37,728 bases of DNA, taken from assembly GCA_041694815.1 (NCBI GenBank), contig JBGFSC010000003.1, positions 1 to 37,728 of the forward strand, given 5' to 3'. The position numbers and the translations under genes are program-made. Of this stretch, positions 13,713-36,856 are shown in pieces. The DNA comes from Elusimicrobiota bacterium. GTDB lineage: Bacteria > Elusimicrobiota > Elusimicrobia > UBA1565 > JACRDR01. The notes under the pieces were generated by a model, which was not told the DNA's origin, ran no database searches, and saw nothing but the letters and a program-made list of their open reading frames with translations. Within the stretch, counting starts at the first letter, position 1. Every line of letters begins with the position of its first letter.

Positions 13713-15344
13713 ATGAACAGCCGGCCCTCCGTTCCTATACCCGTCAACGAGCCACTATTGGGGTATGCCCCCGGAAGCCCCGAGAAAAAGGCCCTCAAGG
13801 CCCGTTTGAGGGAGATGAAGACCCGCGAAGTCGACATCCCTCTCTATATCGGAGGCAAGGAGGTCCGGACGGGCAAGACCCAGGAATGCCGGCCTCCCCA
13901 CGAGCACTCCCACCGCCTGGGACGCTTCCATTTGGCAGGCTCCAAGGAGGTGTCGGCGGCGATCGCGGCCGCGCTCAAGGCGCGCCGGGAATGGGCCGCC
14001 ACCCCGCCGCAGGCCCGCGCCGCGATCTTCCTTAAGGCGGCGGAGCTTTTAGCCAACGACTGGCGCTGGACGCTCAACGCCGCCACCATGCTCTGCCAAA
14101 GCAAGAACGTCCATCAGGCCGAGATCGACTCCGCGGCCGAGCTCATCGATTTCTACCGCTTCAACGTTCATTTCGCGGAGAAGATCTACGAGCAGCAGCC
14201 GCTCTCCTCGCGGGGCACGTGGAACTACGTCGAGCAGCGCCCCTTGGAGGGCTTCGTCTTCGCCGTGACGCCGTTCAACTTCACGTCCATCGCGGGCAAT
14301 CTTCCCACCGCGCCCGCGATCATGGGCAATACGGTAGTCTGGAAACCGGCCTCGAGCACGGTGTACACCGCCCATTTCCTCATGCAGCTGTGGAAGGCCG
14401 CTGGGCTGCCGGACGGGGTCATCAACATGGTGGCCGGGCCGGGCGGTTCCGTGGGGAACATGGTCGTCGAGCACCCGGATTTCGCGGGAATTCATTTCAC
14501 GGGATCGACCGGCGTCTTCCACGACGTTTGGAAGCGGGTGGCCGCCAACATCGACCGCTATAGGGGATATCCGCGCTTGGTCGGCGAAACGGGCGGCAAG
14601 GACTTCATTTTCGCTCATGCTAGCGCCGATCTCGATGCTCTGGCGACGGCCCTGGTGCGAGGCGCCTTCGAGTATCAAGGGCAGAAATGCTCGGCCGCCT
14701 CGCGGGCCTATGTCCCGGATTCGATGTGGCCCAAGCTCCGCAAGAGGCTCGCCGACGAGCTGGCGACCGTCCGCATGGGCTCGCCCGAGGATTTCCGAAA
14801 TTTCTTCAACGCCGTCATCGACCGCCCGGCCTTCGAGCGCATCAAGGGATACATCGACCATTGCCGGCGCGGCAAGGCCGAGAGCAGGATACTCATCGGC
14901 GGCAAATGCGACGATTCGAAGGGCTACTTCATCGAGCCGACCGTCGTGCAGGCCAAGAAGCCCGACGCCAGGACGATGTGCGAGGAGGTGTTCGGGCCGC
15001 TCCTGACGGTTTACGTTTATCCGGAGGCCCGCTACGAGGATACCTTGAAGCTTTGCGACCGGACCTCCCCCTACGCGCTTACTGGCGCCGTGTTCGCGAC
15101 CGAACGAAAGGCGATTCTTTCCGCCTCTCAAATTCTGGTGAACGCCGCCGGCAATTTTTATGTCAATGACAAGCCGACCGGGGCGGTGGTGGGGCAGCAG
15201 CCCTTCGGAGGCGCGAGGGCCTCGGGGACCAACGACAAGGCGGGCAGCCTCATCAACCTGCTCCGTTGGGTCTCCCCCCGAACCGTGAAGGAAAATTTCG
15301 ACCCGCCGAAGGACTACCGCTACCCGTTTTTGGCCGAGGCCTGA
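13713..15344 (+). CDS. pruA: L-glutamate gamma-semialdehyde (P5C) dehydrogenase
   Basis: NEP...YAPGSPE N-terminus, PFNFTSI, GETGGKDF, EYQGQKCSA, NDKPTGAVVGQQPFGG; TGTTATAAT 8 nt before the ATG. Confidence 0.93.
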   Translation: MNSRPSVPIPVNEPLLGYAPGSPEKKALKARLREMKTREVDIPLYIGGKEVRTGKTQECRPPHEHSHRLGRFHLAGSKEVSAAIAAALKARREWAATPPQARAAIFLKAAELLANDWRWTLNAATMLCQSKNVHQAEIDSAAELIDFYRFNVHFAEKIYEQQPLSSRGTWNYVEQRPLEGFVFAVTPFNFTSIAGNLPTAPAIMGNTVVWKPASSTVYTAHFLMQLWKAAGLPDGVINMVAGPGGSVGNMVVEHPDFAGIHFTGSTGVFHDVWKRVAANIDRYRGYPRLVGETGGKDFIFAHASADLDALATALVRGAFEYQGQKCSAASRAYVPDSMWPKLRKRLADELATVRMGSPEDFRNFFNAVIDRPAFERIKGYIDHCRRGKAESRILIGGKCDDSKGYFIEPTVVQAKKPDARTMCEEVFGPLLTVYVYPEARYEDTLKLCDRTSPYALTGAVFATERKAILSASQILVNAAGNFYVNDKPTGAVVGQQPFGGARASGTNDKAGSLINLLRWVSPRTVKENFDPPKDYRYPFLAEA

Positions 15345-23161: not shown

Positions 23162-23895
23162 GCGATGAGTCTCCCCCCGTCCACCGCGAGGGCCGCGCCG
23201 GTGATGAAGTCCGAGCTCTCGATCAGAAAAACGACGGCATTGGCCACGTCCTCCGGGCTGCCCAGTCGGCGCAGCGGGGTCGCCTTTTCAACGGCGCGCC
23301 GAAAGCCTGGAGTGCTGCCTTCGGGCAGGAGAACGGGGCCCGGCAGAACCGCGTTGACCTGTACCTGGGGTGCCAAGGCCTTGGCGAGTAGGGTATTGAG
23401 GCAGAGCAGTCCCGCCTTCGAGACGCAGTACGGCGTGTACTCGACGTAGGGGCGCTGTCCCGCCCAATCGGCGATATTGATGATCTTACCCTCCCCGGCC
23501 CGCTTCATCCGAACTCCCAGGGCCTGCGATAAAAGAAACGGCGCGCGCAGGTTGACGGCCATGTCCTTGTCCCAATGGGCCGCGTCGATGTGGCCCAGCT
23601 CGCGCCTCTCGTAGATGGAAGCGCTATTGACTAGCACGGAGACGGTCTCGAAACGGCGCAGGACGGCATCGGCCAGGCCGCGGGTCTGTCGGGCGCTGCC
23701 CAGGTCGGCGGAGAACACGGCGCTATCTATGCCGAAGCGCCGATGGAGTTCTTGGGAAAGCTGCCGGGCCTCGGTGCGGGAGCTGCGGCAATGGATGGCG
23801 ATATTGGCGCCGCGCCGCGCGAGCGCGACGGCAATCGCGCGACCGACGCGCACGGCGGCCCCGGTGACGAGCGCGTTCTTGCCTTGTAAACGCAT
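23158..23895 (-). CDS. SDR oxidoreductase, pteridine reductase (PTR1/FolM-like)
   Basis: TGAAVRVG (Arg-containing variant typical of pteridine reductases), NSAS, IAD, YCVSK, VNAVLPG. Confidence 0.8.
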   Translation of the reverse strand: MRLQGKNALVTGAAVRVGRAIAVALARRGANIAIHCRSSRTEARQLSQELHRRFGIDSAVFSADLGSARQTRGLADAVLRRFETVSVLVNSASIYERRELGHIDAAHWDKDMAVNLRAPFLLSQALGVRMKRAGEGKIINIADWAGQRPYVEYTPYCVSKAGLLCLNTLLAKALAPQVQVNAVLPGPVLLPEGSTPGFRRAVEKATPLRRLGSPEDVANAVVFLIESSDFITGAALAVDGGRLIA

Positions 23896-23920
23896 TCCGG
23901 AGATTATAGCATGCGTGTGG

Positions 23921-24571
23921 ATGAAGGGGTCGGTCGCGGTCCTCTGCAGCGGCGGACTCGACAGCGCCGTGCTCCTGGCGTGGTGCGCTCGCCGCTACCG
24001 CGGCGTCGTCCCGCTTTTCATCGAGTCGGGATTCCGTTGGGAACGGGCGGAGAGGCTCGGCCTGGAGCGTTTTCTCTCTAGCGCGCGTCTGGCCGGCGTC
24101 AAAGCCCCGATCCGCTTGTCCTCGGATAACCGCGACGTGGTCCGCCGCCGATGGGTACTGCCGGGCGGACCCGTCCCCGGCAGGCTCTCCGCCTGCCCGG
24201 CGGTCTATATTCCCGGAAGGAACTTGCTGCTGTTGTCGAAGGCCGCCGTCTACTGCGCCGAGTCCGGCGTCCACGACATCGCCTTGGGGGTGCTGCGCGG
24301 AAATCCATTCGGCGACAGCACACGAGCCTTCCTTCGCGCCTTCGAGAAAGCAGCCTCCCTGGCCTTGGGCTGGCGCCTGCGCGTGCACGCGCCCTTTAGG
24401 CGATCGAGCAAGGCGTCGGTGATCCGCACCGGCGCCGGCTTGCCGCTTGAGGAGACGTTTTCCTGCATCGCCCCGCGCGGCCGACTGCATTGCGGGCGCT
24501 GTGCCAAGTGCTACGAGAGGCAGCAGGGTTTTAAGAGGGCAGGGGTAACGGACGCGACTCGCTATGCCTAA
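23921..24571 (+). CDS. queC: QueC-like PP-loop ATPase (7-cyano-7-deazaguanine synthase family)
   Basis: SGGLDS, YIPGRN, zinc motif SC-x8-CGRCAKC; start ATG 23921. Confidence 0.8.
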   Translation: MKGSVAVLCSGGLDSAVLLAWCARRYRGVVPLFIESGFRWERAERLGLERFLSSARLAGVKAPIRLSSDNRDVVRRRWVLPGGPVPGRLSACPAVYIPGRNLLLLSKAAVYCAESGVHDIALGVLRGNPFGDSTRAFLRAFEKAASLALGWRLRVHAPFRRSSKASVIRTGAGLPLEETFSCIAPRGRLHCGRCAKCYERQQGFKRAGVTDATRYA

Positions 24572-25754
24572 AATGGAATCTGTCCTCGTCGTTGATGACG
24601 ACCTCGATCAGCTTGGATTCATCGCGGGGCTGCTCGAGCGCAACGGATTCGACGTGCGTCGAGCCAGTTCCGGCTCGGAGGCGGTCCTTCTTCTGGAGAA
24701 AACGCGATTCGATCTGGTGGTAACGGATCTCGTCATGCAGGGCGTCCCGGGCCTGGAGGTCATCCGCAGTGCGGCGGAGAGGGATCCGGAAGCGATCTGC
24801 ATCGCCATGACCGCTCACGGTTCCTTGGACTCCGCGATAGACGCCCTGATGTTGGGGGCCTACAGCTATCTCCTTAAGCCCTGCAACGAGCGCATGCTGA
24901 TGCATTGTGTCCAGAGAGGCCTAGAAAAACAGCGGCTGACGAAGCAGCTGCGCGAGCTCAACCGCGAGCTCAATTCCCGCGTGCAGGAGGCCACCCAGGA
25001 ACTCGTCGAGTTAAACCGCAGGATGCTCACCGAGATGGCCAGCCTTAAGGAGGTAGACGAACTCAAAACCTCCTTCCTCAACCATGTCTCCCATGATCTG
25101 GTCAATCCCATCACTTCCATCCGCGGTTATTTGGATTACCTGCTCCAAGCGAAGGAGCCGTCGTACACGATTTCCGAGGAGGCCAGGGGGCTGTTGGCCA
25201 ATATCAAGAAGGCGGCCACCCATATGGAGTATTTGATTGGTCAGCTGTTGGAGGCCGCGCGGTTGAGCTCCGGCACCATGAAATTGCAGCGGCAGCGCTT
25301 CTCGATCAAGGATCTCGCCCTGGAGTCCTTGACCCTGCTCCGCCCGCAGGCCGACGCCGGAGAGATAAGGCTGGAGATGAGATTTAAGGGCCTCGAATCC
25401 GACGGCGTATGCGGCGACCGGGGACGGCTATTGCAGGTGCTTAGCAATCTCTTGGGCAACGCTTGCAAATTCACCCCCAAAGGCGGGAGGGTCGTCCTTG
25501 AAGTGGAGAAATCCAATGCGCTCGTTCGCTTCACGGTCGAGGATACCGGCCCTGGGATCGCGCCGCAGCATCATGCGCGTATCTTCGACCGGTTTTATCA
25601 GGTCGAAACCGGGCTGAGCCGGCCTTTCAAAGGCCTGGGATTGGGGCTGCGTATCGCCAAGGACTTGGTCGAACTGCACCAAGGGCGGATTTGGGTTGAG
25701 AGCGAGCTGGGCAAGGGCAGTCGTTTCCACGTCGAGATCCCATCGGAGTCCTGA
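24564..25754 (+). CDS. Hybrid REC-HisKA-HATPase histidine kinase
   Basis: N-terminal REC (VVDDD, TDLVM, KP), coiled coil, [29 protein letters not shown]. Confidence 0.93.
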
Positions 25755-25796
25755 ATCCTTGAGTCGGAATTTGCGTGGCGCGCCAAGCGCGGGGAT

Positions 25797-27158
25797 TTAG
25801 CCCGACTGAGTTCTCCAGTAGCGCTGTCCCGCCTCGGGAAGGGTATAGACGGGATCGTAGTACACGTAGGTGCGCGTCAACGCCTCGGGGTCTGAGGCCT
25901 CGATTCCCGTGCGGTAATTCTTGGTCCAGTAGGAAATCCCTTTCTGCCGGTCGTATTCCTTGATCTGATGCACCCAGCGCTTGCCGACGAAAGGCACGTC
26001 CACCGTAACCCGCGGGGTGGCGAAGCCCGGCAGATACCCCATGATGTCGTTTTGCAGCTGCTGGGACTCGTGGATCGCCAGGCGCCAATGCTCCGAGTTC
26101 GGGATCATGTCGCAGGCGTAGAAATAATAGGGCATGATCTTGGCGCAGTCGAGCAGCGTGAAGCAGAGCTCCAATAAATCCTTCGCGGTGGCGTTGACTC
26201 CGCGCAGGAGCACGCCTTGATTGCGGACGTCGCGAAAGCCCATGTCCAGCAGCTTTTGCACCGCGGTGGCCACCAGAGGGGTCAATTGCCGCGCGTTGTT
26301 GACATGCGTGTGCACCGCGATGTCGACACCTTTCTGGCGAGCCTTTTTGGCCAGTCGTTCTAGGCCCGTCAGGACCTCGTCTTGGAGAAAATGCTGGGGA
26401 AGGCCCATCAAGGCCTTGGAGGCCAGCCGTATGTCGCGGATATTCGGGATGTCCATGAGCGCCGACACGAAGGACTCCAGGTGTCCGATCGGCAGATTCG
26501 CCACGTCCCCTCCCGAGACGACGACGTCGCGCACTGAGGGGGTTTTTCGCAGATAATCCAGGATCTGGGCGTAGCGCTCCTTGGGCTGTATCGAGAAGCG
26601 CTGCTTTTCGACCTGGGGGACATCGTTGCCGACCAAGTCCATCCGCGTGCAATGCCCGCAGTACTGGGGACAGGTCTGAAGCAGTTCGGCTAGGACCTTG
26701 GTGGGATAGCGATGGGTCAGGCCTTCGACGGCCCACATATCCGCCTCGTGTAGGCTGTCGCGGGCCGCCTTGGGATGATTGGGCCATTCTGGGTGGCGGT
26801 CGGAGAAGGCCGGCAGCATGTATCTGCGGATCGGGTCGGAGCGCAGATCGCGCTCGTCCATGGTGTTGAGCATTTGCGGGGGAAGCAGGATGGACATCGT
26901 CGCCCGCTCTTTTTGATCCCGCTCGATATCCGCCGCAAGCTCGTCGGGAAGGTGTGGACCAAAAACTACTTTTAATTCCTTGAGATTTTTAGCCGAATGC
27001 TGGCGCTGCCAAAGGGCGCTTTCCCATTCTTTCTTGGAAACGCCTTTATAGCCGGGCAAACGGGTCCAATCCGGCTCGACGAAAGGCCGTTCGAGAGGAT
27101 ACTTAAACGGCTGGGGAGCGGGGCGGGCCTTCGGGACCCGCTTCGTAGGCACGGCCAT
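25797..27158 (-). CDS. kamA: KamA-family radical SAM aminomutase (lysine 2,3-aminomutase-like)
   Basis: [17 protein letters not shown] (CxxxCxxC), [24 protein letters not shown], putative PLP lysine in DVPFVGK. Confidence 0.85.
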
Positions 27159-27203
27159 GCCACGATTCTATCAAAAGTGGCGACGTTCGGATATCCCAAG
27201 CGG

Positions 27204-28478
27204 CTAGGTGGAAAACGTCGTAGTGCGCTTGAGGATAAAACCGACAGCCAAAAGCACCAGTGCCCAAAACACCGGGGCCCAGCCGCCCTGCGCCCCGAGC
27301 CAGAGGGTGGCCAGCGTGCCGGCGATCGGGATAAGCAGGCCGCCGGGAAGAACGAACGACCCTTGGGGGGCGGGGCCGCGCCGCAGCAGGGGTATGGCGA
27401 GGCAGGTGGCGATATACTGGGCGCAGACCACCACGTTGCTAAAATCCACGAGCCGGTTGAAATCGAGCAGAAGGGCCATGAGCAGGGCCACGCTGCTGTT
27501 GGCCAGCACCGCCCGGTACGGCGTATTGAAGCGGGGATGAGATTCGGCCAAGGCAGGGAACAGTTGCCGGTGCTCCGCCAGCGCCACCAGGTAGCGCGGG
27601 CCGCCCAGCGCGCAGCCGGAATTGAACCCAATGGTGGAAAATACCGCTCCCAAGGCGATCGCCGCGGCGCCCCACGGTCCCAGGAAGGCGGCAGCGGCAT
27701 CCGCCAATGGACGCGGAGACTCCGCCAGCCCGGGGTAGACAGAGAGGGCGACGAGCTGGATCATCATATAGAACAGCGTCGCGAAGATCAGCGAGCCCAC
27801 CACCGCCAGCGGGATATTCCTTTGCGGGCGATCCGTCTCCCCCGCAGGCACCGGGACCACTTCGAAGCCCTGATAGGCGAAATAGGCGAGAAAGCAAGCC
27901 GATCCCCAGGCGGGCGCCTGCGCCGGCTCGATCCGGAAGGCGTCGAGATTCAAGTAAGGCAGGCCCAAAAGCACGAAGATCGAAAGCGGCAGCAGCTTGG
28001 AGAAGGTGAAGAAATCCGAGGCCCAGGCGCCCAGTTTGACGCCGCGATAGTTCAAGATAGCCAAGCCGGAGATGACTACCGCGGCCGTGGCCTTGGTGCC
28101 GAAGGTTCCCGCCAAAGCCGGGTTAAAATAGCCCAGATAGGACGCCACGGCGTTGGCCACCGCCGACCAGGCGAACACGTTCGAGGCCCAGCACATCCAG
28201 CCGATGGCAAAGCCCGTCGTTTCCCCGAAGGCCTCCCGCGCGTACAGATACGGCCCCCCCGCGCGGTCGAAGCGCGAGGAAGCCTCGGCGAAGCAAAGCC
28301 CGACAGCCAGAAGCATAAGCCCCGTCAGGCCGAAGGCGAGGATCGAATGGCCCCCCAGAAAGCCGGCCAAACGGCCCGGAAACAAGAAAATGCTCGAGCC
28401 GACGATGGCGTTGATTCCCAGGCAGGTGACGTCGAAGAGCGTCAGCGGACGGGCGAGCGCTCCCGGCGCCCTATTCAC
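27204..28478 (-). CDS. APC-family amino acid permease
   Basis: GINAIVGSSIF, FAE.SS.F...GGPY.Y, FAYQGFE, HPRFNTP; about 12 TM helices; GTG 28478 overlaps the upstream stop (TTG 28481 is an alternative start). Confidence 0.92.
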   Translation of the reverse strand: MNRAPGALARPLTLFDVTCLGINAIVGSSIFLFPGRLAGFLGGHSILAFGLTGLMLLAVGLCFAEASSRFDRAGGPYLYAREAFGETTGFAIGWMCWASNVFAWSAVANAVASYLGYFNPALAGTFGTKATAAVVISGLAILNYRGVKLGAWASDFFTFSKLLPLSIFVLLGLPYLNLDAFRIEPAQAPAWGSACFLAYFAYQGFEVVPVPAGETDRPQRNIPLAVVGSLIFATLFYMMIQLVALSVYPGLAESPRPLADAAAAFLGPWGAAAIALGAVFSTIGFNSGCALGGPRYLVALAEHRQLFPALAESHPRFNTPYRAVLANSSVALLMALLLDFNRLVDFSNVVVCAQYIATCLAIPLLRRGPAPQGSFVLPGGLLIPIAGTLATLWLGAQGGWAPVFWALVLLAVGFILKRTTTFST

Positions 28479-29784
28479 CAAGCTCGGTAAGGCACTCGTC
28501 GAGGATTTCGAGGCCGGCGTCGGCGTCGTATTCGGTCAAAACGAGGGGTGGCGCGACGCGGATGACGGATTTGCCGCAGGAGAGCAGCAGCAACCCCTTG
28601 GAGAAGGCCTTCTGCTCGAGCTCGCTGACCCAGTCGGCGGGCTCCTTGCTCTTTCGATCCTTGACGAATTCGACGCCGATCATGAGCCCGACGCCCCGTA
28701 CGTCGCCGATGGAGCGGTGTTTCTCCTGGAGCCTCCGCAGGCCTTTGAGCAGCCGCTCGCCGACCCTGGCGGCGTTCTGCATGAGCCCCCCCTCGACCGC
28801 GTCGAGCGTGGCCAGGGCGGCCGCGCAGCAAACCGGGTTTCCCCCGAAGGTGGTGCCGTGCGAACCGCGGGGCCAAGTCATGAGCTCCTCGCGCGCGATG
28901 ATGGCGCCGATCGGCATGCCCGAGCCCAGGCCCTTGGCGGTCAACAGCACGTCCGGCTCCACGCCGAAATGCTCGGCCGCCCACATCTTGCCCGTGCGGC
29001 CTACCCCGCTCTGTATCTCATCGAAGACGAGGACGATCCCATGCTCGCTGCAGATCCGCCTCCAGGCCTTGAGGAACTCGGGGCCCGGCAGCACGTAGCC
29101 TCCCTCCCCCTGGATCGGCTCGAGAATTACGGCGGCCACCTCGCTCGCAGAGACCGTGGAGGCGAAGAGTTCGTCGATGCTCTTGGGATCGAAGGGCCGG
29201 CGATAGGGATCGTCGAAGGGCAGATGGATCACGCCAGGCAACAGGGGCCCGAATCCCGCGCGGTACTTCACCTTGCTGGCCGAAAGGCTCATGGCGGCGT
29301 AGCTGCGCCCATGGAAGGCGCCCTGGAAGGCGATCAAGTACGGCCGCTTGGTGTGGAAACGCGCGAGCTTCACCGCGCCCTCGACCGCCTCGGTGCCCGA
29401 GTTGGTCAGAAATACCCGTTTCTTCGACTTCCCAGGCGCCGAGCTCGCCAGGCGTTCGCAAAGCCGCGACATGCCCTCGTAATAGAAGTCGGTTCCGCAG
29501 ATATGGAGAAATTTCCCGGCCGCCTCCTGGATTGCGGCCACCACCTTGGGATGATTATAGCCGGTGGAGGAAACTGCGATTCCCGCCATCCAATCGATGT
29601 AGCGGTTGCCATCGACGTCTTCCACCATTGCCCCCTCGCCGCGCGAAGCGACGAGGGGATACTCCTTGATATAGGACGGCGAGCTCCATTTGCGGTCGAG
29701 CTCGATGATCTTACGGGCCTTCGGGCCGGGGGGCGGCGTCACGATGCGTGGGTAGGAGGCGGCCGCCGTCTTGACCGGGCTCAT
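28471..29784 (-). CDS. Class III aminotransferase, GabT/acetylornithine-type
   Basis: SGTEAVE, FHGR, EPIQGEGG, FDEIQSGVGRTG, AKG (PLP Lys), GTTFGGNP; ATG 29784 overlaps the ALDH stop (ATGA). Confidence 0.92.
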   Translation of the reverse strand: MSPVKTAAASYPRIVTPPPGPKARKIIELDRKWSSPSYIKEYPLVASRGEGAMVEDVDGNRYIDWMAGIAVSSTGYNHPKVVAAIQEAAGKFLHICGTDFYYEGMSRLCERLASSAPGKSKKRVFLTNSGTEAVEGAVKLARFHTKRPYLIAFQGAFHGRSYAAMSLSASKVKYRAGFGPLLPGVIHLPFDDPYRRPFDPKSIDELFASTVSASEVAAVILEPIQGEGGYVLPGPEFLKAWRRICSEHGIVLVFDEIQSGVGRTGKMWAAEHFGVEPDVLLTAKGLGSGMPIGAIIAREELMTWPRGSHGTTFGGNPVCCAAALATLDAVEGGLMQNAARVGERLLKGLRRLQEKHRSIGDVRGVGLMIGVEFVKDRKSKEPADWVSELEQKAFSKGLLLLSCGKSVIRVAPPLVLTEYDADAGLEILDECLTELGE

Positions 29785-31358
29785 TCCATCACCGTGCGGC
29801 TCTGCTCCCGCATGAATTGCGCGACGTAGTAGGGCCCGCAGCCGCCCTTGCCCGTCGACCCCGAGCCCTTCCATCCCGTGAAGGACTGCACGCCGGGCCA
29901 AGCGCCCGTGGTGGCTCCGCTGCGCCGGTTGGCGTAGCACACGCCGGCCTCGACCTCATCGAAGAATCGCTCGATCTCCTCCTTCTTGGCGCTGAAGATG
30001 CCAGCGGTCAGGCCGTACTCGGCCTTATTGCTCTCCTCGATGGCCTCATCGAGGCCCGAGACGACGCCGACGGAGAGCAAGGGCACGAACAGTTCGCGGC
30101 GGAACAATTCATGCTCCAGCGGGAGCTTGGCGACGGTCGGCGCGACGAAATTGCCTTTTTGCAGGGCGCCTTCGCTGAGCCTATGCCCGCCCAGGAGTAT
30201 CTCCCCGCCCTTTTTGGCGCTGGCCGCCGCCTCCTCGAAGGTGCGTACGGCCTTGGCGTTGATCACCGGGCCGAAGAAGACGTCGCGCTGCGTCGGATCG
30301 CCAATCTTAAGCGCCCTGGTTCTTTCCAGGAGCTTTTTGAGGAAGGTCTCCGAAACCCGGCCGTCGACGTAGACCCGCGAGCAGGCGGAGCATTTCTGCC
30401 CTTGCAGGCCGAAGGCGGACTTGACGATTCCCTCCGCCGCCATGTCGAGATCGGCAGACTCGGTCACGATCGCAGGATTCTTGCCTCCCAGCTCCATGAG
30501 CGTGGGCTTGGGCCAGTCGCGGGAGAATTCCTTGGCCATGCGCATGCCCACTTCCTTGGAGCCGGTGAAAACGATGCCGTCGACCTTGGGATGGCGCCAG
30601 AGGGCGTCGCCGATCGCCGATCCCGTGCCGGAGACATAGTTGAACAAGCCGGCCGGCAATCCGGCGTCCCGGTAGCATTCGTAGAGCTTAAGTCCCGTCC
30701 AAGGCGTATCTTGCGCGGGCTTATAGACCACCGCGTTGCCGGCGATGAGCGCCGCCGAGGACATCCCGGTGGAAAGCGCCATAGGGAAATTGAACGGGGC
30801 GATGCAGGCGAAGACGCCGTAGGGGCGCAACACCGAAGCCGTTTTCTCATTAGGCTGGAGTTTTCCGAGCGGCCTCACATAGCCGTCGGCGTCCTCCATC
30901 TGCTGGCAGTAATAGTCGATGAGATCGGCTGACTCCTCGGCGTCGCCCATGGCCTCCATCCGGCTCTTGCCTACCTCCAGGCTCATCACGGCTCCAATCT
31001 CGAATTTTCGCTCGCGGATGAGCTCCGCCGCGCGGCGCAGGACCTTCAAGCGCTCGCGCCATGGGGTCCGGCCCCACGCCTTCTGCGCCGAGCAGGCGGC
31101 CAATATGGCTTCGTTGACATGATCGGCCGTGGCCGCGGCGAAACGGCCCAACAGGGAGCCGTCGATCGGAGAGCTGTCGTTGATGGGGGCGCAGGAAGAT
31201 TTTACCGGCTTATCGGCGATGAAGAGCGGGTGCTCTACTCCGGTCTGCGAGCGGACCTTGGCCAACGCCTCGTCGAAGAGGCGGTGAAACTCCGAGAGGT
31301 CCGCCGCGGCGGAGGTATAGGTGATCTTGAACTGCTTGGCGGGGGATGCGGTGGTCAT
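29781..31358 (-). CDS. Aldehyde dehydrogenase, P5C-dehydrogenase (RocA-like) branch
   Basis: PFNFP, FTGS, ELGGKN, GQKCSACSR, ELF.P, YGLTAG, TGAWPGVQSF.GWK.SG. Confidence 0.9.
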   Translation of the reverse strand: MTTASPAKQFKITYTSAAADLSEFHRLFDEALAKVRSQTGVEHPLFIADKPVKSSCAPINDSSPIDGSLLGRFAAATADHVNEAILAACSAQKAWGRTPWRERLKVLRRAAELIRERKFEIGAVMSLEVGKSRMEAMGDAEESADLIDYYCQQMEDADGYVRPLGKLQPNEKTASVLRPYGVFACIAPFNFPMALSTGMSSAALIAGNAVVYKPAQDTPWTGLKLYECYRDAGLPAGLFNYVSGTGSAIGDALWRHPKVDGIVFTGSKEVGMRMAKEFSRDWPKPTLMELGGKNPAIVTESADLDMAAEGIVKSAFGLQGQKCSACSRVYVDGRVSETFLKKLLERTRALKIGDPTQRDVFFGPVINAKAVRTFEEAAASAKKGGEILLGGHRLSEGALQKGNFVAPTVAKLPLEHELFRRELFVPLLSVGVVSGLDEAIEESNKAEYGLTAGIFSAKKEEIERFFDEVEAGVCYANRRSGATTGAWPGVQSFTGWKGSGSTGKGGCGPYYVAQFMREQSRTVME

Positions 31359-31365
31359 GGTGTCA

Positions 31366-32718
31366 TTATAGCTTCGTGGAAATATCTTTCATAGCGGCTT
31401 CTAGGGCCCTGGAGAAACGGACAACGATCTCATCCATTTCGCGCTCGGAAATGATGAAGGGAGGCGCGATCATCAGGATGTCCCCCCGCCCGTCCACATG
31501 GCCGACGTTCGGCCAAAGCACGAGGCCCTCCTCGATCGCCGCCTCGGCCACGCGTTCGGCCAGCTTGGCCGCGCGGGCAAAAGGTTCCTTGCTCGTTTTA
31601 TCCTGGACCAATTCCACGCCGGCCAGCATGCCGAGCCCGCGCACATCGCCGACGATCGGCAACTCCTTGAGCCGGGCAAGCCGCGAATGCAAGGCCCGGC
31701 CCATGAGCCGCGCGCGGTCGATGAGGGCGTGCTTGTTGAGGTATCGCACGGCCGCAAGGCCGGCGGCGCAGATAAGCGGAGTGTGGGAAAAGGTCTGGGC
31801 ATGCATGAGCCCGCCCGAGCCCTTGGCCAGGGCGTCTAGGATCCGCTGGGGCGCAGCGATAGCCGAAAGCGGCGCATAGCCCCCGCTGATGCCTTTGCCG
31901 AAGGTAATGAGGTCCGGCACGACGCCGTAGGGCTCCATCGCCGACCAGGTCCCCGTCCGTCCCGCCCCGCTGAGCACCTCGTCGGCGATAAATAGGACCT
32001 CATGCCGGTCGCAGATATCCCGTATGCGCCGGTAATAATCCTTGCGGGGCACCGAAGCGCCCGTAGAGGAGCCTCCCACCGGCTCGGCGATGAAGGCGGC
32101 CACGGTCGATGGACCCTCGCGCCGGATGGCCTCCTCCAGAGCGGAGCCGGAGCAGGCGGGGCAATCCTTCCCCTCGCCCCCGCAGGCGCAGCGGTAGGCG
32201 TCTGGGGCGGGGATGCTGGCCACCGGCACGAGCCAATCTTGGAAAAGAGCCTTGTATTGAGGGCGTCCGGAGACGGAAAGCGCCAGCAACGTGTTGCCGT
32301 GATATCCAGGGCTGCGGGCGATGATCTTGCGTTTGGAGGGCTTACCCAATTCGACCCAATACTGTCTTGCGAGCTTGAGCGCGGCCTCGACGGCCTCCGA
32401 ACCGCTGCTCAAAAAGTAGATTTTCTTGAGATCCCCGGGGCAAAGCCGCGCGATCTCGGCGGCCAGCGCCTCGGCCGGCTCGTTGGTGAAGGCGGTGCCG
32501 TTGACGTAGGCGATCTTGGACGCCTGCTCGCCGATGGCGCGGGCGATCTCGACGACCCCGTGCCCGCAGTTGGCCACGAAGGCCCCGCCGCAGGCGTCAA
32601 GATAGCGCTTTCCCTGTTCATCGATAAGCCAACAGCCCTCGCCGCGGACGATCTTGGGAAAAGACTTGTTGAGTTTACGGTAGAAAACCGGGGTTTCGGG
32701 ATAGCGCGGCGCGCCCAC
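31366..32718 (-). CDS. Class III aminotransferase, YodT/BioA-like branch
   Basis: YLDACGGA...GHG, SGSEAVEAALKLARQYW, YHGNT, AEPVGG, ADEV..G.GRTG, GKG (PLP Lys), HAQTF. Confidence 0.9.
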   Translation of the reverse strand: MGAPRYPETPVFYRKLNKSFPKIVRGEGCWLIDEQGKRYLDACGGAFVANCGHGVVEIARAIGEQASKIAYVNGTAFTNEPAEALAAEIARLCPGDLKKIYFLSSGSEAVEAALKLARQYWVELGKPSKRKIIARSPGYHGNTLLALSVSGRPQYKALFQDWLVPVASIPAPDAYRCACGGEGKDCPACSGSALEEAIRREGPSTVAAFIAEPVGGSSTGASVPRKDYYRRIRDICDRHEVLFIADEVLSGAGRTGTWSAMEPYGVVPDLITFGKGISGGYAPLSAIAAPQRILDALAKGSGGLMHAQTFSHTPLICAAGLAAVRYLNKHALIDRARLMGRALHSRLARLKELPIVGDVRGLGMLAGVELVQDKTSKEPFARAAKLAERVAEAAIEEGLVLWPNVGHVDGRGDILMIAPPFIISEREMDEIVVRFSRALEAAMKDISTKL

Positions 32719-32739
32719 CCGGCGATTATAATATTTTGG

Positions 32740-33960
32740 CTATTCGCCCTGCTTGGCTGTCTTTTCCATCGTCAGCCAGCGGTTGGTACCCGCGAATTTC
32801 TGATGCATGCGGGTCAGTGGTTCCGCCTGGGCGGCGCTGGTCTCGGCGATCTGCAGGTCCGCCAAGGCCTCCAGGCCTTGGGTCTTAAACGAGCGGAAAT
32901 ATTGCTCCAGGGCCATTCCCGCCGAGCGGAAGGCCAGAAGGGTCGAGAACTGCAAGGCGTAGCCCATCTGGCCCAGCTGCGCGTTGGTCAGTAGGGCCCC
33001 CTCCTTCTTGGCTTGCCCCCAGTGCAGCGACGGCGACAGGTTGAATCCCAGCATCTGCTCGGGATAGTATTTGTGGACTCCTTCCGCGAAGGCCTGCGGC
33101 CCGTCGGGCTTGGTATCGTTGAATTCGGCCCAAATTACATCGACGCCCAGCGAGGCCGCCTCCAGCGCCCGCTCTATGGCCTGCTCGACGCTTCCTTCCG
33201 GGCCTCCGGGCACCGAGCCATCGACCGCGTCGGTGCGGGCGATGATGACGATCGGGACATTGGTGGCCTGCGCGGCGGCCTTGACCGAGATGAGCTTCTC
33301 GATCCACTTGTGCGTGGGCACTAGCACCTTCGAACGCTTGGCCCCATGGTGGGAGATGATATGCCCGCAGGTGCGCTCGGCGGGGTCCTGGTCCTCGAGA
33401 TGCACCCCCGCCGCTCCGGCGCGGATGAGCTCGCGGGTCAGCGTGAAGGCCTGCGTGGGCCCCCCAAAGCCCGCCTCGATGTCGGCGAAGATGGGCGGCA
33501 CGTTGAGTATCTCGCCGCCGGTGTCGTAGAAATGCGTGTCGCGCGTGCCCTCGATGCCGCGGTTGAGCTCGCGGACCAATTCGACCATCGCGTGGGAGGG
33601 ATAGATTCCGATATCGGGATACATGTTATGGGCGACGGCCAATTGCCAGCCGCTGGCATAGATCGCCTCGAAGCCGAGCCTCGTTAAGATCGAGGCGGTC
33701 AGGGCATCGTAAGCCCCGGCGGTATGCAAGTAGGATTTCTCCGGAGCGCTCTGGCGCTGGGCGAAATGTTCCTTGAGGAGCGTGCGGAGCTTCCCGGCGC
33801 CGGGGACGCTTTCGGGCGGGGCATAGAGCTTGCGGACCTGCTCCTCGGGATAGCGCCAGCTTTTCCTTCCGTTGGAGGAGACCGTTTGGCAGGCGACGCT
33901 GCCCGCCACCGTCGTCGGCGCGGCCGCCTTCGCGTTTTTGGATCCGTTTTTGGCGCGCAT
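32740..33960 (-). CDS. aceA: Isocitrate lyase (variant active-site loop)
   Basis: SGWQ, YPD..YP, ADIEAGFGG, HLEDQ...RTCGH, ARTDA, NLSPS, HQ.FAG; starts 1 nt after the malate synthase stop. Confidence 0.82.
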   Translation of the reverse strand: MRAKNGSKNAKAAAPTTVAGSVACQTVSSNGRKSWRYPEEQVRKLYAPPESVPGAGKLRTLLKEHFAQRQSAPEKSYLHTAGAYDALTASILTRLGFEAIYASGWQLAVAHNMYPDIGIYPSHAMVELVRELNRGIEGTRDTHFYDTGGEILNVPPIFADIEAGFGGPTQAFTLTRELIRAGAAGVHLEDQDPAERTCGHIISHHGAKRSKVLVPTHKWIEKLISVKAAAQATNVPIVIIARTDAVDGSVPGGPEGSVEQAIERALEAASLGVDVIWAEFNDTKPDGPQAFAEGVHKYYPEQMLGFNLSPSLHWGQAKKEGALLTNAQLGQMGYALQFSTLLAFRSAGMALEQYFRSFKTQGLEALADLQIAETSAAQAEPLTRMHQKFAGTNRWLTMEKTAKQGE

Positions 33961-33961
33961 A

Positions 33962-35527
33962 TTAGAATTCCCCCCGCAGGATCAACTCTTGCGAGCGTTG
34001 TCGAGCCTGCAAGTACCGTTCCTTGGCCTGGCCGGCGATCTTTCCGCCATCCAGGATTTTGCCCAGCTCCTCATCGAAAAGTTTAGTGAGCAGATCCCCG
34101 TCGATCCTGAGTCCCTCCTCGACGCGCACGCGGTGCCGGAGCCGCTGGGACAGCATCAGGCGGTAGATGCGGTCGGTGGCGAGGTCCTCCATGAAGCCTC
34201 CGATGAGCTGTCCGTTCACGTCGTATCCCGGGATCAGCCGCGCCCCGAGCCCGCCCAGCACGCCGAAGCGGTATTCGATGACGGTGCGCACCGCGTCGCG
34301 GGTCCCCGCGAGGGTGATCCGCCCACCCTCCGGTTTTGGAGTCAGGTCGGGCTGCGACGGCCGGTCGGGATGCGTCACGGACAATTGGTTCGGCCTGGGG
34401 AATTGGGCGACGGCTATTTCCTGCTGGTCGGGATGCCCGGTCCAGGCGCCGTCGAAGCCGATCGAGGCCTCGTTGAGCTTGTCCACCTTGAGCCTCTCCA
34501 GGGCGCGGCGGTTGACCTCCGGATTCTTGCGGTCCGGGAAGAGGGCCGTCATGCCCCCGATGGCCAGCGCGCCGCGCCGGTGGCAGGCGTCGACGATCCG
34601 ATAGCGGAGGTTCTGGAAGAAGGCGATGTCGTGCGGGATGCTGTTGCGGTCCGGGAGTATCCAGCCTGGGTCGGCGAGCTTGTAGTGGATCAGGCTGGCC
34701 ATGTAATCCCATCGACCGAGATTGAGGCCGATGACGTGGCGCTTGGCGGCGAAGAGGATCTCCTCGAGCTGGGTCGCTGCGGGCAGCGACTCGATGAGGA
34801 ACATGATCTTCGTCGTGCCCGCGGGAATCCGGCAGCTCTTCTCCATGGCCGCGAGCAGGTCGCTCCACCAGCCGGCTTCCTCGGCCGACTCGATCTTCGG
34901 GATGTAAAAGCAGAGTTTGGCCTGGGCCGACGGGTCCTGGGCGGCGGCGCGACGGCGCTCGCGCGTCTGATAGAAGACGACGGCGAGATCGAAAATCGAG
35001 GCGCTCACGCTCTTGCCGTCGAAAGCGCGGCTCTCCTCGAGGTGGAGGCCGCGCGGCCGGTAATAGATAACCTGGCGGCTGGGCTTGGGCTTAAGCTGGG
35101 CGCCGGTTTCCGGATGGACGGCGCGCAAGGTCCCCAAGATGGCGAGGACGGTGTTTTGCTGCGCGGCGCGGACGTTCTCCCAATCCGTGGTGATGGAATC
35201 CTCACCGTCGGGCATGCAGCCCGGCGCGCCGCTATTGAGCATGCCGACGAGCAGCTTCGCGTTGTCCGCCGGACCGGTGATCTGGTTGCGCTGGTCCAAG
35301 GCCCAGTCCGGCAGCGCGATGCGCCAGTCGCCCTTGCGCGCCTCGGAGTCCCGAAGCGGCTGCGGCGATCGTCCGCGGTGGGCGGCGGCCAATACCTGGG
35401 CCCGCTTTTTGAGCATGATCTGTCGTGGTGGCTCGAAATGGCGATCCAGCGGGGCGAAGAAATCCGCGAAGCCCTCGGGCAGGGCTAGGGAGGCCTCGGG
35501 CGCGGGTCCGACGGATATTTTAGTCAT
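33962..35527 (-). CDS. aceB: Malate synthase A
   Basis: ITGP, DGEDS, RPRGLHL, YIPKIES, LIE, LNLGRWDY, AIGGM, GFDGAW..HP, MEDLAT. Confidence 0.93.
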   Translation of the reverse strand: MTKISVGPAPEASLALPEGFADFFAPLDRHFEPPRQIMLKKRAQVLAAAHRGRSPQPLRDSEARKGDWRIALPDWALDQRNQITGPADNAKLLVGMLNSGAPGCMPDGEDSITTDWENVRAAQQNTVLAILGTLRAVHPETGAQLKPKPSRQVIYYRPRGLHLEESRAFDGKSVSASIFDLAVVFYQTRERRRAAAQDPSAQAKLCFYIPKIESAEEAGWWSDLLAAMEKSCRIPAGTTKIMFLIESLPAATQLEEILFAAKRHVIGLNLGRWDYMASLIHYKLADPGWILPDRNSIPHDIAFFQNLRYRIVDACHRRGALAIGGMTALFPDRKNPEVNRRALERLKVDKLNEASIGFDGAWTGHPDQQEIAVAQFPRPNQLSVTHPDRPSQPDLTPKPEGGRITLAGTRDAVRTVIEYRFGVLGGLGARLIPGYDVNGQLIGGFMEDLATDRIYRLMLSQRLRHRVRVEEGLRIDGDLLTKLFDEELGKILDGGKIAGQAKERYLQARQRSQELILRGEF

Positions 35528-35544
35528 GCGGGCTCTTGGTCGTG

Positions 35545-35573
35545 GTTGTACTATAGTGGCCCTTTCCTGTCAA
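35545..35573 (-). promoter_or_regulatory. Possible sigma70 promoter for aceBA
   Basis: Minus strand TTGACA (35573-35568), N17, TACAAC (imperfect -10). Confidence 0.4.
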
Positions 35574-35605
35574 TAAAAAACATGTAACGTGGGAGCGTCG
35601 GCGGT

Positions 35606-36184
35606 TTAACGGTGGAAAAAATGACGGCGCGAAAATAGCCGAAAGGCCATGACGACGAGCAGGAAGGAAACGGCCACGAAGGGGACCCACATGTTTTGCA
35701 GGGCGTTTTCCTGCGTCGCCGTGCGGCTACCGACCGCCGATCGGAGGGTCTCGTCCGGCTCCACGATGGACGGGGCCCGGCTGGTCGCGACCCGCGGCGG
35801 GGAAATATCCCGCGGGGAAGCGAAAGCGATTGCTCCGCCCGGCGCCAGGATGCGGTCCCCCTTGGAAGTAGAGACGGTCACGAAGCCCGAGAATACCTGG
35901 ATTTGTGGCTGGCCATCGCGGGTGAGGGCGACAGAAACCGAATCGCCTTCAGAGAGGGTGATGGTGGAAAGGCCATTGCGGAGCACCGCCGAACCGGAGA
36001 GCATCGATACTCTCGAGCCGGGAAAAATCGGATGCGGCAAGAAGGCTCCCGAGACCAAGCCCTTCACGCCGAAAGAATCCTTGATCTCGATCTGACCGCT
36101 GAGTCCTACGAGCTGGGAGGCCGGACGCGGGTTGGCCGCCAATAAAAAGGAATAACAGAAAAGGAGAATGCTGAGAAGGGGCAT
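35606..36184 (-). CDS. Exported, membrane-anchored hypothetical protein, FecR-like beta domain possible
   Basis: Signal peptide, beta-rich middle (V..G.V.V...LAPG), C-terminal TM helix; TGcTATAAT and AGGAGG upstream. Confidence 0.7.
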   Translation of the reverse strand: MPLLSILLFCYSFLLAANPRPASQLVGLSGQIEIKDSFGVKGLVSGAFLPHPIFPGSRVSMLSGSAVLRNGLSTITLSEGDSVSVALTRDGQPQIQVFSGFVTVSTSKGDRILAPGGAIAFASPRDISPPRVATSRAPSIVEPDETLRSAVGSRTATQENALQNMWVPFVAVSFLLVVMAFRLFSRRHFFHR

Positions 36185-36226
36185 AAGGCCTCCTACCTTT
36201 ATTATAGCAGGCGAAAGGCGGAGCGT

Positions 36227-36856
36227 TTAATCGCTAATCCAGCGACGGAAAAAGGACTGCTCCACGGCCTTCGAGACGTCGGAAAGGTCGGGCTCCTGCC
36301 CCAGGAGCTCGGCCATCGAGGCCATTTGAGATGGCTCTAGCCCGCATGGGAAGAGGCCACGCAGCGCCGAGAGGTCCGTGCGAACGTTGAGGGCGAATCC
36401 GTGGTAGGCGACCCAACGCCTTACCGAGACGCCTATCGACGCGATTTTCCTTCCCCTTGACCATACGCCGGTGAAGCCCTTGACGCGTTCCGCCTCGAGA
36501 CCGAATCGGCCGACGGCGTCGATGAGTCCGTCTTCCAAGAGCCGTAGATAGGCCCCTACGGTCAGGCCCCTGTTTTTTAAGTCGACGATGGGATAGCCCA
36601 CGAGCTGCCCCGGCCCGTGGTAGGTGACGTCGCCTCCGCGCTCGACGTGGAAAACGGGGTAGGGCGTCTGCCGCAGGCTGTGGGGGCTAAACCCCCGCCC
36701 GCAGGTGACGACTGGCGGATGCTCGGCGAGCAGCAGCGTGTCCTCGATCTCCCCGCGGGCGCGCGCCTCCGCGAGGCGGCGTTGGAGCTCCAAGGCCTCG
36801 GCGTAGTCGACGGCGCCCAGGCGGCGGACCTCCAGCGCGCACGGCGCCCGCCTCAT
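36227..36856 (-). CDS. lipB: Octanoyltransferase
   Basis: EHPPV.T.GR, RGGDVTYHGPGQ, KIASIG, HGFALN, PCG. Confidence 0.96.
   Translation of the reverse strand: MRRAPCALEVRRLGAVDYAEALELQRRLAEARARGEIEDTLLLAEHPPVVTCGRGFSPHSLRQTPYPVFHVERGGDVTYHGPGQLVGYPIVDLKNRGLTVGAYLRLLEDGLIDAVGRFGLEAERVKGFTGVWSRGRKIASIGVSVRRWVAYHGFALNVRTDLSALRGLFPCGLEPSQMASMAELLGQEPDLSDVSKAVEQSFFRRWISD

Follow-up and report, generated by a model that had tools for sequence, protein, structure and literature searches.

A KamA-family gene beside an aminotransferase-aldehyde dehydrogenase module in an Elusimicrobiota genome: a candidate B12-independent route of lysine catabolism through beta-lysine

A cluster of seven genes on a contig of an Elusimicrobiota bacterium (GenBank assembly GCA_041694815.1, contig JBGFSC010000003.1) may encode the first steps of a pathway that breaks down lysine without a B12 enzyme. 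The stretch analysed, hereafter the window, is the whole 37.7-kb contig (37,728 nucleotides), and the genome from which it comes is 2.77 Mb and 97.8% complete. We tentatively give this role to five of the seven products, namely a KamA-like aminomutase, an APC-family permease, two class-III aminotransferases and an aldehyde dehydrogenase (ALDH) resembling pyrroline-5-carboxylate dehydrogenase (P5CDH), and we put the chance that the assignment is right a little below even. With confidence that likewise stops just short of an even chance, we propose that many bacteria of at least seven phyla follow an undescribed, B12-independent path from lysine through beta-lysine, 3-aminoadipate and 3-oxoadipate (or its CoA ester) to succinyl-CoA and acetyl-CoA, and that this path is built from non-orthologous parts.

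The open reading frame (ORF) listing of the window gives seven co-oriented minus-strand ORFs that span 25797-35527 at exactly the coordinates assigned in the initial annotation. In order, they encode a malate synthase (MS)-like protein (33962-35527), an isocitrate lyase (ICL)-like protein (32740-33960), a class-III aminotransferase of the YodT-like group (ATy, 31366-32718), the P5CDH-like ALDH (29781-31358), a class-III aminotransferase resembling ornithine/lysine omega-aminotransferases (ATg, 28471-29784), the APC permease (27204-28481) and the KamA-family enzyme (25797-27158); the families to which these products belong are established. Gaps of less than 50 bp, with overlaps between the ALDH and ATg genes and between the ATg and permease genes, had been claimed and are borne out by the measured spacings of 1 nt (MS/ICL), 21 nt (ICL/ATy), 7 nt (ATy/ALDH) and 45 nt (permease/KamA). 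ATg and the permease overlap by 11 nt, while the ALDH/ATg overlap is 160 nt with the longest ATg ORF (to 29940) and 4 nt with an ATG start at 29784. The latter is probably the true start, because the family-model alignments begin there.

The KamA-family product (453 aa), of the radical S-adenosylmethionine/pyridoxal 5'-phosphate (PLP) 2,3-aminomutase type, is a putative lysine 2,3-aminomutase and the only member of its family encoded in the genome. It matches TIGR03820 at 179.4 bits (cut-off 525.4) and TIGR00238 at 174.5 bits (cut-off 199.2), which places it below every NCBIfam cut-off, it has no Pfam match at E<=0.001, and its score against the lysine 2,3-aminomutase structure PDB 2A5H is 150.6 bits. 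By these scores it is best called a member of a divergent KamA-family clade, here termed clade 1. The CxxxCxxC motif of the [4Fe-4S] cluster is present as Cys163, Cys167 and Cys170, aligned with Cys125, Cys129 and Cys132 of 2A5H, and Arg172 aligns with the carboxylate-binding Arg134. Lys393 falls one column away from the PLP-binding Lys337 of 2A5H in the phmmer alignment and is aligned with it by MAFFT; in place of the glycine-rich PGGGGK loop stands a different one, which ends in GK. Asp350 and Asp387 align with Asp293 and Asp330 of 2A5H, a pair that we take to hold the side-chain amino group of lysine. Conservation of these active-site residues is established, as the three Cys, the Arg and both Asp are kept in 114/114 KamA-family sequences from the loci described below. 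The accessible part of PMC9850924 reports that replacement of the second Asp in the Bacillus subtilis lysine 2,3-aminomutase (D331G) changed the substrate from lysine to alanine. Relatives 65-81% identical to the window enzyme occur in metagenome-assembled genomes (MAGs) labelled Acidobacteria, Actinomycetota, Myxococcota, Gemmatimonadota and Elusimicrobia, and judged from these sequences clade 1 is a distinct, strongly conserved KamA clade. Protein Atlas carries automatic names only, such as 'putative lysine 2,3-aminomutase'. We propose that the window enzyme would convert lysine to beta-lysine.

The two aminotransferases of the cluster match Pfam Aminotran_3 at 323 and 432 bits. ATg, the product that the initial annotation had called GabT-like, is indeed omega-aminotransferase kin and lies closest to the ornithine/lysine omega-aminotransferases: it exceeds the NCBIfam cut-off of PRK05769 (588.9 against 552 bits), and its best PDB match is 7VNO at 397.8 bits, followed by an alanine/serine racemase at 338.8 and by GABA (4-aminobutyrate) aminotransferases at about 326. 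We take 7VNO to be PH1423 of Pyrococcus horikoshii. A table of PMC9986279 gives PH1423 as an ornithine delta-aminotransferase with activity on L-/D-ornithine and lysine.

The reading of the ALDH as P5CDH-like also stands. Its match to Pfam Aldedh is 454 bits, and its top seven PDB matches are all P5CDH or PutA (299-307 bits), compared with 270 bits for a betaine-aldehyde dehydrogenase and 227 for a succinate-semialdehyde dehydrogenase (SSADH). It misses both P5CDH cut-offs, with 413.4 against 648 bits on PRK03137 and 390.7 against 659.65 on TIGR01237, and among other NCBIfam models it scores 303 bits for SSADH and 281 for piperideine-6-carboxylate dehydrogenase. At 13830-15203 (+), 15 kb away, lies the gene of a true P5CDH, which passes TIGR01236 with 681.6 bits (cut-off 613.6), and a monofunctional proline dehydrogenase is encoded on contig C16. 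The idea that the cluster ALDH is the genome's own P5CDH was therefore rejected, and the cluster ALDH is an extra, divergent P5CDH-like paralogue.

The resemblance of ATy to YodT, suggested earlier by eye, is real, though it stays below the family cut-off (457.7 against 535 bits on PRK06917, a model presumably built on B. subtilis YodT). ATy also narrowly misses PRK07483 (470.1 against 485 bits), so that it belongs to a related subgroup. Its match to PDB 3I4J (294.9 bits) places it in the omega-/beta-amino-acid aminotransferase group, and it is also kin of putrescine and polyamine:pyruvate transaminases. A class-III enzyme, Kat, acts as a beta-transaminase on a CoA ester in a variant of lysine fermentation, according to the accessible part of Perret et al. 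(2011, PMC3149608). The permease matches Pfam AA_permease_2 at 152.8 bits and TIGR00909 at 231 bits (cut-off 556.8), and an orthologue 57% identical to it occupies the same position in another Elusimicrobia locus (L087).

Beta-lysine (3,6-diaminohexanoate) is the beta-homologue of ornithine, and in the route that we propose it would be handled like ornithine by recruited RocD/RocA-like enzymes, a beta-transaminase and end steps of the beta-ketoadipate type. The permease would import lysine (or beta-lysine) and the KamA-family enzyme would move the 2-amino group to C3, giving beta-lysine. ATg would then remove the 6-amino group to give 3-amino-6-oxohexanoate, which should cyclise to a homologue of pyrroline-5-carboxylate (P5C), and the P5CDH-like ALDH would act as a 3-amino-6-oxohexanoate dehydrogenase yielding 3-aminoadipate. 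Removal of the beta-amino group by ATy would give 3-oxoadipate, or 3-oxoadipyl-CoA if CoA transfer comes first and the CoA ester is the substrate, and a CoA-transferase and a thiolase would finish the route to succinyl-CoA and acetyl-CoA. In this genome those two activities would come from contigs C8 and C35; in relatives they are encoded within the cluster. We infer every substrate and the order of the steps.

The same enzymes could act in another order. ATg and the ALDH would first convert lysine to 2-aminoadipate, KamA would be a 2-aminoadipate 2,3-aminomutase forming 3-aminoadipate, and ATy, the CoA-transferase and the thiolase would follow; PH1423-type aminotransferases do accept L-lysine, according to the accessible part of PMC9986279. 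This order nevertheless seems quite improbable, as the ALDH scores 413 bits on a P5CDH model against 281 on the piperideine-6-carboxylate dehydrogenase model, and the Asp pair fitting a cationic side chain, which an acidic substrate should disfavour, is kept in both KamA clades (114/114). The two Asp are replaced in glutamate 2,3-aminomutase.

Comparison with other genomes bears on the beta-lysine proposal. The KamA query confirmed 595 stretches and the ALDH query 572, and the best 80 loci of each were kept; synteny was read by tblastn with the window proteins on the fetched DNA, in which several loci are contigs of a few kb, making the counts lower bounds. The conserved unit elsewhere is ATy-ALDH-ATg with a two-subunit (alpha, beta) CoA-transferase, often with a thiolase. 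In 55/80 ALDH-query loci the ALDH gene is followed by ATg, and in 45/80 ATy lies directly upstream of it; 4 more carry another class-III aminotransferase (AT2). A CoA-transferase pair is present in 40/80 and a thiolase in 14/80, and 28/80 have the full set of ALDH, ATg, ATy or AT2, and CoA-transferase. This module is found in Elusimicrobiota, Gemmatimonadota, Polyangiaceae and other Myxococcota, Planctomycetota, Eremiobacterota, Bdellovibrionota, a Chloroflexia MAG and others. The CoA-transferase of most module loci, including the Elusimicrobiota type, is closest to the glutaconate CoA-transferase 1POI. Non-orthologous parts fill the same roles according to lineage: two KamA clades, ATy or AT2, and a CoA-transferase of glutaconate or PcaIJ/ScoAB type.

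A KamA-family gene joins the module in four phyla, Elusimicrobiota, Gemmatimonadota, Actinomycetota and Planctomycetota, and since the linkage recurs in this way it exceeds chance; the recurrent linkage of the enzyme set is itself established. Synteny of kamA with the aminotransferase and ALDH genes outside the window thus exists for clade 1 in the first three phyla and for a second KamA clade in Planctomycetota. Among the KamA-query loci, 8/80 carry ATg and/or the ALDH, six from Gemmatimonadota (L060, L066, L069, L073, L078, L080) and two from Actinomycetota (L010, L058), and five of these eight have the whole set of KamA, ALDH, ATg, ATy and the CoA-transferase pair. Among the ALDH-query loci, 10/80 carry a KamA-family gene, 4 from Planctomycetota and 6 from Elusimicrobiota (L087, L089, L094, L099, L106, L111); in the latter a clade 1 KamA lies 3-9 kb downstream of ATg. 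Clustering of ORFs in KamA neighbourhoods gave no universally conserved neighbour, a result confounded by antisense ORFs in high-GC DNA.

In Planctomycetota the set forms a single operon. In L108 and L139 the co-oriented order is sodium:solute symporter, ALDH, ATg, AT2, CoA-transferase A, KamA, CoA-transferase B and thiolase, and tblastn gives the same run in L109 and L134, the symporter having been checked in L108 and L139 only; a thiolase was not detected in L109 and was found in 3/4 of these loci. CoA-transferase A belongs to the pcaI_scoA family (233.5 against a cut-off of 128.5 bits) and B to pcaJ_scoB (248.5 against 243.55). The KamA encoded here is of a different clade, 33-35% identical to the window enzyme, and it passes the family cut-off (247 against 199 bits), scores 230 bits against 2A5H and, in direct alignment to that structure, keeps the equivalents of the three Cys, the Arg, Asp293, Asp330 and Lys337. 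Chance hardly accounts for an aminomutase gene that separates the two subunit genes of a 3-oxoacid CoA-transferase.

Co-occurrence of the KamA and ALDH genes was tallied by hand from two tables for 101 genomes of the window's order, a set with many incomplete genomes and with kin that do not count as independent. Clade 1 KamA is present in 85/101 and an ALDH orthologue in 82/101; 74 genomes have both, 11 KamA only, 8 the ALDH only and 8 neither (Fisher p=0.002, with kin not independent). A shared contig, with the two genes 2.8-29.5 kb apart, is seen in 26 of the 74, one of them the window's genome. The remaining genomes have them on different contigs, some large enough to show real separation, and the window is one of the tightest arrangements of KamA and module in the order. 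In a phylum-wide sample, dominated by small-genome families without the KamA gene, 4/151 genomes had it. A KamA-family gene with lysine-type residues is present in 5/5 module genomes checked in other phyla, from Polyangiaceae, Planctomycetales, Eremiobacterota, Bdellovibrionales and Chloroflexia. In a sample of 121 Bdellovibrionota genomes a KamA-family gene occurs in 80, namely in 11/11 of the genomes that carry the ALDH orthologue and in 69/110 of the others (p=0.008, uncorrected for kinship or genome size).

A number of observations weigh against the beta-lysine route. The scores of the window KamA, below every NCBIfam cut-off and with no Pfam match, make lysine no more than its putative substrate, and the binding of the lysine side chain by the Asp pair of 2A5H is probable rather than certain. 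An ornithine/lysine aminotransferase with a P5CDH-like ALDH would also fit ordinary ornithine or lysine catabolism. Linkage of KamA to the module is facultative: the fetched DNA, often a short contig, holds no module gene at 72/80 KamA-query loci and no KamA gene at 70/80 ALDH-query loci. Besides the 11 and 8 genomes of the order that have one gene without the other, among them genus g82 (KamA in 4/4, ALDH in 0/4), clade 1 occurs with no close ALDH orthologue in one genome each of Myxococcaceae and Acidoferrales. The pairing of clade 1 with a second KamA paralogue in some lineages, described below, suggests a two-aminomutase system and hints at another role. Finally, the unlinked CoA-transferase and thiolase of this genome could serve general ketone-body or fatty-acid metabolism.

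One explanation for the frequent separation is that the module has nothing to do with KamA and serves to break down ornithine, lysine, a diamine or an omega-amino acid (cadaverine, for instance, by way of 5-aminovalerate and glutarate to glutaryl-CoA), while KamA does something else, such as supplying beta-lysine for a different use. The glutaconate-type CoA-transferase of the Elusimicrobiota loci would fit this, given that 1POI presumably accepts glutarate as well, as would the kinship of ATy with putrescine and polyamine:pyruvate transaminases and the acyl-CoA dehydrogenase and 3-hydroxybutyryl-CoA dehydrogenase genes that adjoin kamA in several Elusimicrobiota loci. We consider it unlikely. 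KamA-family genes of two clades accompany the module across four phyla, in Planctomycetota between the CoA-transferase subunit genes, and the operon there encodes a 3-oxoacid CoA-transferase and, in 3/4 loci, a thiolase, and no glutaryl-CoA dehydrogenase. The Elusimicrobiota acyl-CoA dehydrogenase best matches acryloyl-CoA reductase (443 bits), its sole hit to a glutaryl-CoA dehydrogenase model reaching 279 against a cut-off of 470, and the cluster ALDH is P5CDH-like and not aminobutyraldehyde- or succinate-semialdehyde-dehydrogenase-like, in a genome with a separate true P5CDH. The comparative data support the beta-lysine proposal better than the alternatives. Of the pathway outlined in the initial annotation, synteny, the P5CDH-like ALDH and the presence, in related clusters and unlinked in this genome, of the end-step genes that the window lacks speak for it; the glyoxylate link is not conserved, and KamA and the module are often apart.

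No gene for KamDE, Kdd, Kce, AblB or EpmA adjoins kamA, an earlier observation that holds in the Pfam and NCBIfam scans of the window. A search of the 97.8%-complete genome found no match to Kce (PF05853), a model that did match in the Deinococcus radiodurans control, and none to KamD (PF09043), which matched in none of 14 control genomes either and so has no positive control; Kdd and Kal were not searched. AblB (TIGR03827) had no match in the genome, with six control genomes matched and two of these over the cut-off, and for EpmA/GenX (TIGR00462) nothing was above the cut-off, the best score being 210 against 286.9 bits for a 546-aa frame not adjacent to kamA. Three known settings of KamA were rejected in consequence: clostridial fermentation, as the partner genes for Kce and KamD were not found; the AblB osmolyte route, as there is no AblB partner gene in the genome; and modification of EF-P, as no EpmA partner gene scores above the cut-off.

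The initial annotation was also right that the window has no CoA-transferase or thiolase; both are found in related clusters, and both are encoded, unlinked, in this genome. The genes at C8:775-2123 encode the A and B subunits of a 3-oxoacid CoA-transferase (289.7 against 128.5 and 310.5 against 243.55 bits, on family-level models that also cover ScoAB), which are 49-52% identical to those of the Planctomycetota operon. A thiolase on contig C35 (L168:7946-9343) scores best on the 3-oxoadipyl-CoA thiolase model PRK09050 (556 against 605 bits) and reaches 538.9 against 597 on TIGR02430, both below the cut-off.

With such end steps the same gene set would also suffice for an acetylation-free path to GABA, otherwise like the acetyl-beta-lysine pathway of Pseudomonas B4. 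ATy would deaminate beta-lysine, the CoA-transferase and thiolase would give acetyl-CoA and 4-aminobutyryl-CoA and hence GABA, and ATg and the ALDH would be a GABA aminotransferase and an SSADH. The closeness of ATy to PRK06917 (457.7 against 535 bits) would fit, as would the M20 peptidase-family and acetyltransferase-like genes that Gemmatimonadota L066 also carries. GABA aminotransferases, however, match ATg less well than the ornithine/lysine aminotransferase structure does (326 and 398 bits), and SSADH matches the ALDH less well than P5CDH does (227 and 306 bits in PDB, 303 and 413 in NCBIfam), while an SSADH-like ALDH is encoded elsewhere in the genome, on contig C44. Moreover, no AblB/YodP-type acetyltransferase was found in the genome, and free 3-oxo-6-aminohexanoate should, on chemical grounds, cyclise and decarboxylate. 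We regard this path as very improbable.

The proposed beta-lysine route shares parts with several known systems. Lysine fermentation in Clostridium and Fusobacterium (KamA, KamDE, Kdd, Kce and Kal, with the Kat variant covered by the accessible part of PMC3149608) likewise starts with KamA and ends on CoA esters with a CoA-transferase and a thiolase. Here, however, the genome searches gave neither KamDE nor Kce; the cluster has an omega-aminotransferase and a P5CDH-like ALDH instead, no B12 enzyme would be needed, and the chain would stay a C6 dicarboxylate (3-aminoadipate), whereas in the fermentation it is split via 3,5-diaminohexanoate. The RocD/RocA route takes ornithine through glutamate semialdehyde/P5C to glutamate and 2-oxoglutarate, and thus also uses an omega-aminotransferase, a P5CDH-type dehydrogenase and a second transamination, with ATg and the ALDH being kin of its enzymes; the cluster differs in that its ALDH is below the P5CDH cut-offs and stands beside a true P5CDH, and in that the module adds a beta-type aminotransferase, a CoA-transferase and a thiolase. 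In B. subtilis, yodT lies in the kamA operon with genes for a CoA-transferase pair, an acetyltransferase and a deacetylase. KamA, a YodT-like class-III aminotransferase and a CoA-transferase pair are shared with that operon, but no beta-lysine acetyltransferase was found in this genome and no deacetylase in the window, and the omega-aminotransferase/ALDH pair is not known to have a counterpart in that operon. Pseudomonas B4 has an N6-acetyl-beta-lysine pathway that yields GABA. The last two steps proposed are those of PcaIJ and PcaF in the beta-ketoadipate pathway, and a pcaI_scoA/pcaJ_scoB pair scores above the cut-off both in this genome and in the Planctomycetota operons; the 3-oxoadipate would come from an amino acid and not from aromatic ring cleavage, and most module loci have a glutaconate-type transferase. 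A survey of B. subtilis lists the physiological role of KamA and the function of YodT as unknown (PMC6522883, accessible part). No account of the present lysine route was found in the literature searched, which left out most subscription journals and the older Barker-laboratory papers.

Lysine catabolism is among the most varied of amino-acid pathways, and many genomes have no recognised route. If the proposal is true, it would add a new lysine route and explain stand-alone KamA-type genes in genomes without KamDE, AblB or EpmA. It would also give functions to a conserved, unnamed aminotransferase-ALDH-aminotransferase-CoA-transferase operon of soil and freshwater phyla, and it would provide enzymes for C6 beta-amino and dicarboxylic acids (3-aminoadipate and 3-oxoadipate), which are of interest for adipate-type chemistry.

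The two remaining genes of the cluster had been taken to connect the module to the glyoxylate shunt. The MS-A-like protein (521 aa; Pfam MS_TIM-barrel 198.4 bits) and the ICL-family protein (406 aa; Pfam ICL 145.7 bits) are both divergent, passing the Pfam domain cut-offs and missing those of NCBIfam (326.7 against 594.5 bits on TIGR01344 and 217.5 against 562 for isocitrate lyase), and they are the only members of their families encoded in the genome, so that a role in the glyoxylate shunt is still likely. The link to the module is not conserved. An ICL-like orthologue occurs in 35/101 genomes of the order, and in the 34 other than the window's it lies elsewhere, only one being on the ALDH contig and that 558 kb away; the MS/ICL pair adjoins the module in this genome only. 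Different ICL-family genes do adjoin the module in Elusimicrobia L087 and, with an MS-like gene, in L111, and a loose functional tie of the module to acetyl-CoA assimilation is possible.

In the window, a TAA stop and a single base part the MS-like frame from the ICL-like one. Of 35 close matches in the order, 22 have the ICL-like part within an open frame of 880-1,021 aa, and in the two relatives checked (L185 and L186) a single frame takes in both the MS-like and ICL-like parts, with 15 nt between them in one relative and about 105 nt in the second; most relatives seem to encode a fused MS-ICL protein. The ICL-like protein has an R-T-C-G-H motif where canonical isocitrate lyases have K-K-C-G-H.

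In Myxococcota, as in some Bdellovibrionota, clade 1 KamA stands beside a second KamA paralogue, which shares 30-37% identity with one of the two KamA queries. The paralogue is on the same strand in L036, L041, L045-L048, L051, L053, L054, L056, L057, L061, L063 and L077 and on the opposite strand in L015, L028, L030 and L076, with G352, G358 and G364 as further cases. It is shorter than clade 1 KamA in both phyla; the Bdellovibrionota version has about 340 aa and is encoded on the opposite strand. In Actinomycetota (L010, 6779-9866; L058, 749-3836) an AsnC/Lrp regulator and two GCS2-family carboxylate-amine ligases are encoded divergently upstream of kamA and a HAD hydrolase gene follows ATy; an AsnC regulator precedes the KamA-family gene in the Eremiobacterota genome too. 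The acyl-CoA dehydrogenase and 3-hydroxybutyryl-CoA dehydrogenase genes form a conserved pair near the module in Elusimicrobiota L008, L040, L042, L088, L089, L094, L099, L116 and L117. Where kamA is in the fetched DNA, this pair lies on the opposite strand upstream of it, adjacent in 5/6 loci, and no close orthologue of the pair's dehydrogenase was found in the window's genome.

Around the cluster, a scan of 25400-36400 for sigma-70 promoters and intrinsic terminators gave counts within shuffle expectation. The co-oriented run extends upstream into a 192-aa ORF, lipB and an E2 acyltransferase gene; neither Pfam nor NCBIfam gives a match for the ORF (35606-36184, minus strand), whose neighbours are lipB and the MS-like gene. 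On the other side, a response-regulator/histidine-kinase hybrid (24564-25754, plus strand) is convergent with kamA. Its start is overlapped by the ORF of a QueC-domain protein (23615-24571, plus strand), which has an N-terminal extension of about 100 residues and scores 74 on the QueC model against a cut-off of 150.

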